IMG/VR virus record: IMGVR_UViG_3300014205_000184
Coordinates: 67,162 to 130,218 of that record
From: a virus
Taxonomy: Duplodnaviria > Heunggongvirae > Uroviricota > Caudoviricetes
DNA: 63,057 nt
Strand: one strand, 5' to 3'
Part shown: piece after piece, positions 56,048 to 62,280 of the stretch
Layout of the letters: every line of letters starts with the position of its first letter
How positions within the stretch are numbered: position 1 is the first letter of the stretch
The notes under the pieces: model-generated
Databases searched by the model: none
What the model saw: the letters and a program-made list of their open reading frames with translations, nothing else
Told to the model about the DNA's origin: nothing
Position numbers and translations under genes: made by a program

Positions 56048-56461
56048 CTATACTACTTCAAGATTCTCTAAGCGATTATCTAACGTAATCCCATTTTTAT
56101 GCTTAACACTCTCGTTTTCGAGTAGTTTACGCCCCAAATGGGATTCTAATATCATCTTATGCAATAAAGCATATCCATTAGCATCAGCTAAGTTATTATC
56201 TTTACCAACGTGTATTTTAATATACCCATTGTTAATAATAACACCCTTCGGTAAAATAGTTTCTTCGACTTTACTATTTTTTATATCCTCTAGATTAAAG
56301 TAATATTTTTTACCTATTCTTACATGCTTTATAGTGTCTGATTTCGCAAAACTACGTAATGTGGCCGGGTGAAGATTTAACATCTTCGCTGTTTCATTGA
56401 TTGGGAGTAATTTATTCTTTTCTAAAAATTCTATATATTCTTTCGTAAACATCTCTTTCAT
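56048..56461 (-). CDS. Excisionase-like HTH fused to an HNH-type domain (possibly degenerate)
   Basis: LLPINETAKMLNLHPATLR...RIGKKYYF; LHKMILESHLGRKL...VKHKNGITLDNRLENL. Confidence 0.72.
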   Translation of the reverse strand: MKEMFTKEYIEFLEKNKLLPINETAKMLNLHPATLRSFAKSDTIKHVRIGKKYYFNLEDIKNSKVEETILPKGVIINNGYIKIHVGKDNNLADANGYALLHKMILESHLGRKLLENESVKHKNGITLDNRLENLEVV

Positions 56462-56479
56462 TTAAATCTACCTCTCATA

Positions 56480-57025
56480 TTATGTCTTTCACAATCTCCA
56501 AATAAAGGAAGCGTAAGAAGTAACTCGGACGTTAACAAAGAACCTAACTTACTTACGACATTTGACAATTAACGTGTAACTTCACCATCAGGTTCTCTCA
56601 TCGAGTGTTGCCCAAAGTGAATTATCACTTGTCTTTAGTCTTGATACGTTACCCTTTACTCTTGCTTAACTTCAGCCTTAAAGCTTGCTATCTTAAGTCT
56701 TAGGTCGGGGATACTTTTCCCCATGCGCAGAGTAGATACTGACGTATCTATTCATAACAATAACATTCGTCTGATTAGGACGATATCCGTTTTGTAATAA
56801 TTACTATTCGTAATTAACAATTAAATCCGCTTATCGTCGCAGAATACGCTTTATTATTTCCGATTTTTATCTCTTTATCTGAGACTTTTGTGAAAGAACT
56901 ATTTTTTAAATTGGAATTGATTTATCGCTAGAGAGCTACTCTAGATTAGTTCACACATCAATTCCGTATAAGCTACTCAGCTATACCAGATATGCATATC
57001 TGTGAACAAGGTATCACTTTTCGCA
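56480..57025 (-). ncRNA. Probable large structured ncRNA (~550 nt), ROOL-like in size and context
   Basis: ORF-free gap with many hairpins (56987-57002, 56733-56750, 56707-56722), nested pairing 56913-56921/56957-56965 and long-range pairing 56485-56494/56888-56897; near tRNAs. Family assignment not verified. Confidence 0.68.
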
Positions 57026-57028
57026 GTA

Positions 57029-57559
57029 TTACTTTTCAATTACGTCTGTCGTAGCGTTTGCTATCTCTAAAACTTTATCTATTGACTCTTTTTCTGTCTT
57101 AAGTAACTCTAACTGTTTATCACGTTCTGACGCATCGAAATAGAACCTGACTCTAGCTTGCTTTACTTTATCTGTGTCCAATCCTCTAACTAACATCGAC
57201 TTATCTGACAACCCTCTATCTGAAAGAATACTATACGACTGTATCTCGAAATCTATAATCTCACGTCTACGTATAACCCATTCAGAAATAGTTCTAGTTA
57301 CAGGTTCGTCACCGATTTTTATAGTAACGTTTGTTTCTAGATTCGTCCTCTGAATATCTTTCTTAAGTTTAGTCAGATTCAACGCCAAATCATGGTGCAT
57401 CTGTAACCATTCTGAAACTTTCTTCTTCTGTGAGTCTGCGTCTCCATAAGTAGCCTGCATACAGTCTAAATCAGCGCAGTACATACTTATTTTCTTACGT
57501 AAATCTTCCATTTTACGTAACGTATGTTTCGTACCATGCATAGCTTCAATTAACTTCAT
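57029..57559 (-). CDS. Coiled-coil protein (resembles DIP1984/DUF6847-type proteins, from memory)
   Basis: MKLIEAM...IQRTNLETNV...TISEWVIRRRE...LEIANATT. Confidence 0.6.
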   Translation of the reverse strand: MKLIEAMHGTKHTLRKMEDLRKKISMYCADLDCMQATYGDADSQKKKVSEWLQMHHDLALNLTKLKKDIQRTNLETNVTIKIGDEPVTRTISEWVIRRREIIDFEIQSYSILSDRGLSDKSMLVRGLDTDKVKQARVRFYFDASERDKQLELLKTEKESIDKVLEIANATTDVIEK

Positions 57560-57911: not shown

Positions 57912-57989
57912 TGGTCTGAGCGAAAGGATTTGAACCTTTGAACTCTTGTCTCCAAAACAAGCGACTTGACCAGACTAGCCTACGCTCAG
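57912..57989 (-). tRNA. trnP: tRNA-Pro(UGG) with encoded CCA
   Basis: Acceptor CTGAGCG/CGCTCAG, A73, CCA; anticodon arm CTTGT-TTTGGAG-ACAAG; T-arm AAAGG-TTCAAAT-CCTTT. Confidence 0.92.
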
Positions 57990-57993
57990 TTTT

Positions 57994-58070
57994 TGGTAGC
58001 GGGAGTGGGATTTGAACCCACGACATTCAGGGTATGAACCTGACGTGCTACCTGGCTGCACTATCCCGCA
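57994..58070 (-). tRNA. trnM: tRNA with CAU anticodon (Met; initiator/elongator/Ile2 identity unresolved)
   Basis: D-stem GTGC/GCAC; TCAGG-TTCATAC-CCTGA; GTGGG-TTCAAAT-CCCAC; U1.U72 mismatch; CCA. Confidence 0.92.
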
Positions 58071-61812: not shown

Positions 61813-61973
61813 TTCAACTATAACGCTTCAACACCCAGGTCTTAAATATTACACCTTGACACTCATGCCTTGAGTCTTGAGTCTTGAGTTTTGTATCTCG
61901 ATTCTTGTGCGTTAGGTCTTGTGTCTCGGGACTTGCGCATTACGCATTAATTCTTAGGTCTCGGGGCTCTGGT
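61813..61973. repeat. Degenerate 7-nt periodic array (~23 units; CTTGAGT x3 core)
   Basis: Units in register: cccaggt cttaaat attacac cttgaca ctcatgc cttgagt cttgagt cttgagt tttgtat ctcgatt cttgtgc gttaggt cttgtgt ctcggga cttgcgc attacgc attaatt cttaggt ctcgggg ctctggt. Confidence 0.8.
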
Positions 61974-62280
61974 GAAGCGGATTATGATGCATATAATGAA
62001 GTATATATATGATATACTAGTGTAGAAAAAAACTGGACCACTCCGTGTAAGATACAGTAGACGTGTGAAATCGCAGAAAAAGAAAAATTCTCGTCGAGAA
62101 AAAACGTGGGGGGATATTTAATACTTTCGTGAGTCAAAAATTTTTTGATTTAAAATTAAATATAATTTATATCAATATATATTAAGTAAAAAAAATTATA
62201 ATAAAATGTCTTTTGTCAAGTATTATTTTAAAATAAATTTAATTTTGATTTTTCAAAGTGATTATGTTTTTCAAAGTATC

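Follow-up and report, generated by a model that had tools for sequence, protein, structure and literature searches.

Large, ornate RNAs are rare in bacteria and phages, and each of the classes described so far (RNase P, tmRNA, Y RNAs, OLE, ROOL and GOLLD) opened a line of work. Several of these classes are points of reference for the element discussed here, a structured RNA encoded beside the gene of a 176-amino-acid (aa) protein in a viral genome. The stretch of DNA analysed, referred to below as the window, comprises 63,057 nucleotides (nt) of the 130,218-bp virus record IMGVR_UViG_3300014205_000184, a record with direct terminal repeats. GOLLD is a large structured phage RNA (>800 nt) with no assigned function that is found near tRNA islands and is built from a conserved part and a variable part sometimes holding tRNAs; it forms RNA-only cages and has no known protein partner. 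ROOL, a phage and prophage RNA near tRNA genes that also has no assigned function, contains multiple pseudoknots and is likewise without a known protein partner. The YrlA-type Y RNAs, the partners of Ro60/Rsr, are modular RNAs with a stem formed from their two ends, are encoded beside their protein and occur in phages; bacterial Y RNAs have a module in which T arm, closed acceptor stem and D arm follow one another (PMC4201824). In two-piece (permuted) tmRNA a permuted tRNA-like domain is joined to a pseudoknotted body, and the RNA has a dedicated small protein, SmpB. Arrays of short protein-binding motifs are found in CsrB/RsmZ (GGA), in the targets of TRAP and HutP (NAG triplets, with 4-nt spacers for HutP) and in the T4 gene 32 leader.

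The RNA of the window and its relatives share features with all of these systems; the element belongs to none of them, and they are its closest analogies. Its setting, its structured nature and its combination of conserved and variable parts recall GOLLD, but the family has a length of about 350 nt and an obligate neighbour gene. Pseudoknotting and location are shared with ROOL, whereas the RNA described here is smaller and has a putative protein partner and a heptad array. The end-to-end stem, the modular build and the gene beside that of a protein are as in the YrlA RNAs; however, the putative partner is a DIP1984-type protein and not Ro60, the RNA is 3-4 times longer, and the pseudoknotted core and AAG array are not found in YrlA. 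Relative to two-piece tmRNA, the tRNA-like arm is optional, a tag reading frame is not evident and the protein is not SmpB-like. The array resembles those of the motif-array RNAs in that a short purine motif is repeated many times at fixed spacing and is probably unpaired (the period of the HutP target is also 7 nt), but the motif is AAG and not GGA or UAG, and the array is located inside a large folded RNA.

The gap that holds this element almost certainly encodes a structured functional RNA, and we regard selection on the structured RNA as established. It is likely that the ~390-nt non-coding RNA represents an undescribed class and that, together with the adjacent DIP1984-type gene, it constitutes a cassette of two genes widely distributed among uncultured phages. 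The genes in this part of the window are on the minus strand, as are the features described below. A 567-nt gap (56462-57028) separates the stop codon of the 176-aa open reading frame (ORF) from the ATG of an ORF with HTH and HNH domains. An ORF-free gap of ~560 nt had been reported in a first-pass annotation of the sequence, and this description holds; the sole ORF inside the gap is an unconserved 36-aa frame with a TTG start. The structured RNA, delimited by nhmmer and covariation, runs from the 5' strand to the 3' strand of its closing stem P1 (56494-56885, ~392 nt), and an nhmmer search over the 130-kb genome detected one copy only (56495-56901, E = 2e-52).

The evidence for a conserved fold comes from two alignments. 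Set A3 consists of 57 sequences in a MAFFT alignment that was fitted to no structure, and set A4 consists of 49 further sequences found via a 3'-hairpin pattern plus the window row, which is the only row common to A3. The first-pass annotation had proposed to look for covariation in homologs found via the upstream protein, and it was present: in A3 90.2% of the cells were paired compared to 70.1% after shuffling. Changes on both sides of a pair were observed in 455 cells (131 in the shuffles), and none of the 500 shuffles reached any of the measures. Pairing fell to 35-55% when the partner was moved by 1-3 columns. In A4, 94.7% of the cells were paired compared to 78.7% after shuffling, with 30-59% in the slid controls. 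The search pattern behind A4 contained the 3' hairpin only, and both P1 and P2 lie outside of it. Compensatory changes occur at 12 of the 12 P1 pairs in A3 and at 11 of 12 in A4, with up to six pair types per position, and P2 covaries at all four of its pairs in both alignments. The P4-P6 hairpin was paired in 92.6% (A3) and 98.7% (A4) of the cells, and the P5 positions covary. Additionally, G-U pairs (117) outnumber A-C pairs (50), and therefore an RNA made from the minus strand is favoured.

P1 is formed by the 5' strand GUCUCAGAUAAAG (56873-56885) and the 3' strand CUUUAUUUGGAGAU (56494-56507), which show compensatory changes with each other; it is the 10-bp long-range helix of the first-pass annotation, and its strands are ~380 nt apart. 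It is followed by the near-invariant strand GAGAUAAAAA (56864-56873), which hardly varies in either the 57- or the 50-sequence alignment, and by the 5' strand of P2 (UCGG, 56860-56863). The 3' strand of P2 (56525-56528) is contained in the loop of the conserved 3' hairpin P4-P6 (56508-56563), and the core is therefore a pseudoknot. The 3' hairpin itself is built from GAA.G/C.UUC, a variable helix of 5-6 bp and AAGUU/AACUU. Between these conserved ends lie a hairpin with a conserved (R)ACG(A/U)UA loop (56826-56844), a variable arm with three hairpins in the window (56730-56823), a GGGGA...UCCCC hairpin directly 5' of the array (56707-56722), the array of AAG heptads (56628-56706) and a hairpin region 3' of the array (56581-56630). 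The loop hairpin, the GGGGA...UCCCC hairpin and the hairpin region 3' of the array were judged by eye: in the first the stem letters vary and the loop is kept, the second is kept with wholly different stems in relatives, and in the third a helix of the UUCAC/GUGAA type is kept through sequence change in near relatives. In some members (L081, L054, L122, L134 and L137) a GC-rich hairpin of ~30 nt is inserted in the middle of GAGAUAAAAAC, between GAGAUA and AAAAC, in a strand that is otherwise invariant; this strand therefore tolerates insertion at one exact point. A local hairpin at the 3' end (CUUCC/GGGAG) was considered and has been superseded by P4 and P1, and it may form as a transient alternative fold.

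The AAG-rich linkers that had been noted at the outset turned out to be one array of N4-AAG heptads. In the window 11 AAG triplets fall within 83 nt, and successive triplets are 7, 8, 7, 7, 5, 4, 7, 14, 7 and 5 nt apart; neither the array's AAG count nor its number of 7/8 spacings was matched in 10,000 shuffles. Across 57 elements AAG accounts for 10.4% of all array triplets, and the family-wide spacing is 7 nt in 157 cases and 8 nt in 104, with doubled values at decayed units. The AAG (three of the seven positions) is the only fixed part of the heptad, and the four spacer positions are mildly biased. A covarying partner for the array was sought and none was found; the apparent AAG/CUU pairs involve invariant letters only. 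The array may be single-stranded. A second N4-AAG heptad array is present on the minus strand between 61760 and 61990 (~61840-61975); ACUCAAG occurs in it three times, and GACCUAAG is among its other units. A GAAUGUC...hairpin...GCUUC motif reminiscent of P4/P5 comes after this array, which is located in a gene-free region near the genome end with no adjoining DIP1984-type gene, and the weak nhmmer match there (12 bits) covers the array part only. This second array may be a diverged second copy of the RNA or a second site for the same binder.

The variable arm differs greatly between members of the family. Among 112 elements, 30 have a tRNA in the standard order, 11 have a YrlA-like order, 30 have only a T-loop motif and 41, including that of the window, have none of these; ARAGORN detected no tRNA in the window's arm, which consists of hairpins only. 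In the YrlA-like arms the order is T arm, closed acceptor stem and D arm, and these fold as a permuted cloverleaf (for example in L033, L044, L062 and L067). With the Rfam YrlA model (RF02553) the arms of relatives score 30-44 bits (43.7 bits over the whole model for L044; 30-37 bits for L088, L038, L033 and L042), far below the gathering score of 69, and the match covers the arm only. Many of the embedded tRNAs (e.g. in L035, L045, L086, L050 and L068) are unusual: their anticodons are seldom seen in bacteria (act, att, atg, aca and aat), or they have a tta 'stop' anticodon or an anticodon loop of the wrong size. Because of these odd anticodons and loops, shape mimics fit better than decoders. 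A TROVE/Ro60 gene was searched for in the 130-kb genome with no match, and the control genomes were matched.

The second line of evidence is the linkage between the RNA and the protein gene. The 176-aa protein has 49 close homologs (37-76% identity), and the homolog profile matches 860 clusters (50% identity) at E <= 1e-3. A scan of viral contigs with the single protein gave no match, and the profile scan then succeeded. In each of the eight loci retrieved first, a gap of 290-1400 nt without genes comes after the homolog, with differing flanking genes, and the gaps of relatives share blocks at 67-85% DNA identity. With an iterated nhmmer model made from these gaps the element was found in 80 of 83 loci, which include 62 viral contigs and five contigs binned into metagenome-assembled genomes. 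In these protein-first loci the RNA is always on the gene's strand and nearly always just 3' of it (5' in L042, L065 and L072), and distant relatives of the protein retain a diverged copy of the RNA.

The linkage is also observed when the search starts from the RNA. The 3'-hairpin pattern matched 22 viral contigs, nine of them new, with the protein adjacent in 19 and the other three loci incomplete. In metagenomes it found at least 80 loci. Among the matches listed, 79 have the full RNA; 66 have a same-strand protein gene (64 upstream and 2 downstream) and 13 are too short to judge, and no listed match with at least 700 nt on both sides is without the protein, which is present in 66 of the 66 that can be evaluated. 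A median of 12 nt separates the ORF end from the first position of the model in the RNA-first loci, and that position is ~16 nt 5' of P1. The RNA begins ~5-20 nt after the stop codon of the protein in many relatives, and at certain loci the two are set apart by tRNAs or by as much as 2 kb. In total, 112 distinct full-length elements of 261-452 nt (median 347) were collected from viral and environmental contigs. The strong covariation and the reciprocal gene linkage, to which no exception was seen, support the first-pass proposal of a new large RNA that may work with the 176-aa protein. The nearness to tRNAs that was part of that proposal also stands, as ARAGORN places tRNA-Pro and tRNA-Met at 57912-58070, ~350 nt upstream of the 176-aa gene.

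The partner gene (57029-57559) encodes a protein with a probable DIP1984/DUF6847-type fold, as judged from profiles and an AlphaFold model. The AlphaFold (AF2) model has four long helices and a small sheet (pLDDT 90). Among solved structures it is matched best by the Corynebacterium protein 3kdq, which has no assigned function (E = 2e-3), and its neighbours in the ESM Atlas are DIP1984/DUF6847 clusters labelled 'septicolysin' (TM 0.57-0.79). The profile matches point to the same family, although the scores are under the curated cut-offs: NCBIfam DIP1984_fam (NF038048) matches with E = 1.3e-6 and 28.6 bits (cut-off 70), and DUF6847 (PF20935) matches with 16.6 bits (cut-off 27) and in 17 of 36 relatives. 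Four members match the profiles along their full length, with E-values of 1e-6 to 6e-10. A helix with W-x-x-R-R-R is among the conserved features. A homodimer is predicted with an ipSAE of 0.73 (best control 0.00), with at least 97% of the contacts shared between runs and a partner pLDDT of at least 88. Of 30 proteins that have been solved as pairs, 20 attained this mark, as did 1 of 23 that have been solved as single chains; the prediction may owe its score to the likeness to 3kdq, a relative that is already solved. No PADLOC defence-system profile matched the 176-aa protein, and a search of the literature found nothing on the function of DUF6847/DIP1984 or on a link of the family to RNA. A search with a distant member did not reach true bacterial DIP1984 genes.

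How the two components might work together can be outlined as follows. Because of the tight spacing and the absence of promoter and terminator matches, the RNA is probably co-transcribed with the protein gene. The GAGAUAAAAA strand and P2 dock into the 3' hairpin's loop, and the swappable arm and the array (about 8-11 AAG) project from this core. From the gene linkage alone, we think it probable that the RNA forms a particle with the neighbouring protein, a dimeric and arginine-rich protein that would assemble with it. The AAG array could then be a single-stranded platform with many binding sites, used either by the partner protein or by an RNA-binding factor of the host, and the tRNA-like arm, where present, could engage tRNA-recognising machinery. 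During infection such a particle might target host RNA, tRNA or translation factors in trans, either as an adaptor of the Y-RNA kind or as a decoy. A role tied to tRNA or translation is a tentative suggestion. The fullest form of the proposal, which we put forward as speculative, is a new class of phage RNA-protein particle in which a pseudoknotted scaffold RNA displays an exchangeable tRNA or mimic together with an AAG array that is coated at one unit per 7-8 nt, either by DIP1984-fold dimers or by a captured host factor, and in this way hijacks or decoys host machinery that handles tRNA or single-stranded RNA (e.g. anticodon nucleases, RNase P, PNPase or ribosomes).

Several observations weigh against the proposed RNA-protein particle or against parts of it. 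The copy in the window has no tRNA-like arm, and therefore a tRNA-linked role may not apply to it. In the collection of cultured phages that was searched, blastn with the gap and tblastn with the protein gave no match, nor did tblastn with the proteins of three relatives and blastn with the elements of two. The DIP1984/DUF6847 family has no known RNA-binding member. A helix P3 (AAA/UUU) that had been considered was not kept, as its A-U pairs show too little covariation, and the unpairedness predicted thermodynamically for the array (0.45) barely exceeds that of the rest of the RNA (0.40). Relative to dinucleotide shuffles the folding energy of the whole gap has a z of -5.3 on the minus strand and -4.6 on the plus strand, and part of this signal stems from hairpins that are not conserved; the conserved element alone has a modest z of -2.8, compared to -0.5 +/- 1.1 (minimum -2.3) for 12 coding controls. 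For this reason the weight of the evidence is placed on the comparative data and not on folding energy. Finally, stop-free stretches ~54 codons long are present on the sense strand of the RNA; a small ORF within the element is unlikely because of the 7/8-nt period and the gaps left by gene callers.

Other explanations of the locus have to be weighed against the particle. The RNA might be a machine without protein, like ROOL and GOLLD (for example a self-assembling multimer), with the protein merely co-regulated or acting as a transient chaperone or processing factor. The context is that of GOLLD and ROOL (phage, proximity to tRNA genes, tRNAs in a variable region), the pseudoknotted core shows high conservation, and both of those RNAs do without a known protein partner. 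Nevertheless, the linkage in 66 of 66 evaluable RNA-first loci (among the matches listed) and in 80 of 83 protein-first loci, a size that is half that of ROOL or less and the lack of an Rfam match make an RNA-only machine improbable. We give a similarly low chance to the element being an untranslated region that acts in cis within the mRNA of the 176-aa protein. The protein would bind the array near the pseudoknot and control its own translation or the stability of the mRNA, in the manner of the T4 gene 32 protein, which controls its own expression via its leader. The RNA abuts the gene, a separate promoter or terminator is not seen, the RNA is 5' of the gene in a few loci (L042, L072, L065, L110 and L115) and the repeat length of the motif is close to the site size of a protein that binds single strands cooperatively. 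However, about 95% of loci have the element 3' of the gene, its length of 260-450 nt far exceeds that of known operators, its closing stem P1 isolates a self-contained fold, whole tRNAs or tRNA mimics reside within it, and it is in some loci separated from the gene by the tRNAs or distances of up to 2 kb mentioned above.

A DNA element is very unlikely. Here the heptads would be iterons to which the dimeric protein binds in replication, partition or packaging. The omega repressor of pSM19035, which binds 7-bp arrays, and the CCTAAAG arrays beside the T7 terminal repeats are known parallels. The direct 7-8 bp repeats, the second heptad array near the genome end and the predicted dimer are compatible with this explanation, but it does not account for a pseudoknotted core and long-range helices whose covariation is rich in G-U pairs for only one of the strands. 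In addition, the orientation is fixed relative to the gene and the embedded tRNAs, only three of the seven heptad positions are conserved, and a turning point of the cumulative GC skew was not seen at the gap. That the element is a divergent ROOL, GOLLD or tmRNA, or a group I intron carrying the HNH gene, can practically be dismissed. Size and context recall ROOL, the HNH endonuclease gene is next in line and a subset of relatives has permuted tRNA-like modules, but none of these families matches the window at E <= 10. With Rfam 15 only two tRNAs reached the gathering score in the window and nothing meaningful was found in the gap at E <= 10, and in 20 relatives only tRNA and RNase P RNA reached it. 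For the ROOL and GOLLD models, neither the window nor two relatives gave a match at E <= 10, and no match in the 20 relatives reached the gathering score; 'ROOL-like', as the first-pass annotation had it, therefore finds no support as family membership and describes a likeness of context (phage, tRNA genes, embedded tRNAs). The YrlA model has no match in the window at E <= 10, and the permuted tRNA-like module is absent from the window. ARAGORN calls no tmRNA in the window, and the Rfam tmRNA matches in relatives (15-19 bits) are to the T arm only. For the group I intron there is no Rfam match in the window, the flanking ORFs are separate and complete genes that vary from one relative to another, and most relatives lack the HNH gene. 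The sole match to a motif-array family is RsmY in L039 (12.6 bits, E = 0.9, gathering score 57), located in the 5' part and not in the AAG array. A search of the literature for this RNA found nothing; the models in a 2023 catalogue of structured RNAs from viruses, which may include fragments of it, are all 29-151 nt long.

The remainder of the gap in the window is not part of the conserved RNA. The 127-nt spacer between the protein gene and the RNA (56902-57028) is found in this phage alone, as it could not be aligned to relatives, and it folds into three consecutive hairpins, including the palindrome at 56987-57002 and a 53-nt nested hairpin (56913-56965). None of the three has a U tract, and they account for much of the low folding energy of the gap. 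The 16-nt palindrome that the first-pass annotation had assigned to the RNA is thus present in the sequence, but it lies in a spacer that relatives do not share. Used as a probe, it has seven exact matches elsewhere, and it was dropped from the element because all of these are unrelated loci. An upstream box, TAGTTCTTTCACAAAA (56886-56901; family consensus TGTTCTTTGAMA), directly precedes P1. In about 20 relatives as well as the window, the box TGTTCTTTGA(A/C)A occurs 0-12 nt before P1, often right after a hairpin or a tRNA, and it is found only where the protein gene does not abut the RNA. This box could be a promoter element that is not of the sigma-70 type or a processing signal. The RNA strand was scanned here for a sigma-70 consensus promoter and a convincing terminator, and neither was found. 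One candidate, TTGACA-17-TAAAAA, was rejected as the sigma-70 promoter of the complete RNA, since the strands of P1 and P2, which covary, are upstream of the start that this promoter would give.

On the 3' side, the neighbour of the RNA is the gene of an HTH and HNH homing-type endonuclease (56048-56461), assigned from Pfam (HTH_17 and HNH_3) and from the PHROG HNH families. It is not a constant part of the module: a gene of this type follows the module only in this phage and in the L009 group. Because other relatives have different genes at that place, this suggests that the free-standing homing-type endonuclease is a mobile insertion beside a conserved RNA gene. Other RNAs were noted in the relatives. 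Two close relatives contain a short class A RNase P RNA (~250-260 nt) within tRNA arrays (L014:5882-6144 and L012:6024-6274), which scores 111-112 bits, above gathering, and has no counterpart in the window. In the viral contig L049, ARAGORN calls a tmRNA (1806-2161, tag ANPDLALQAA) ~850 nt upstream of a DIP1984-type gene.

The element brings together three themes: tRNAs in large phage RNAs, tRNA mimicry of the Y-RNA type and multivalent arrays of protein-binding motifs. Its putative obligate protein partner is an experimental handle that ROOL and GOLLD do not offer. The alignments are sufficient for an Rfam-style family, with which hundreds of otherwise empty gaps in viral contigs could be annotated. 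For the DIP1984/DUF6847 ('septicolysin-like') proteins the linkage to this RNA is a first functional lead, and if the RNA and the protein do form a particle, this would be the first function of the family.

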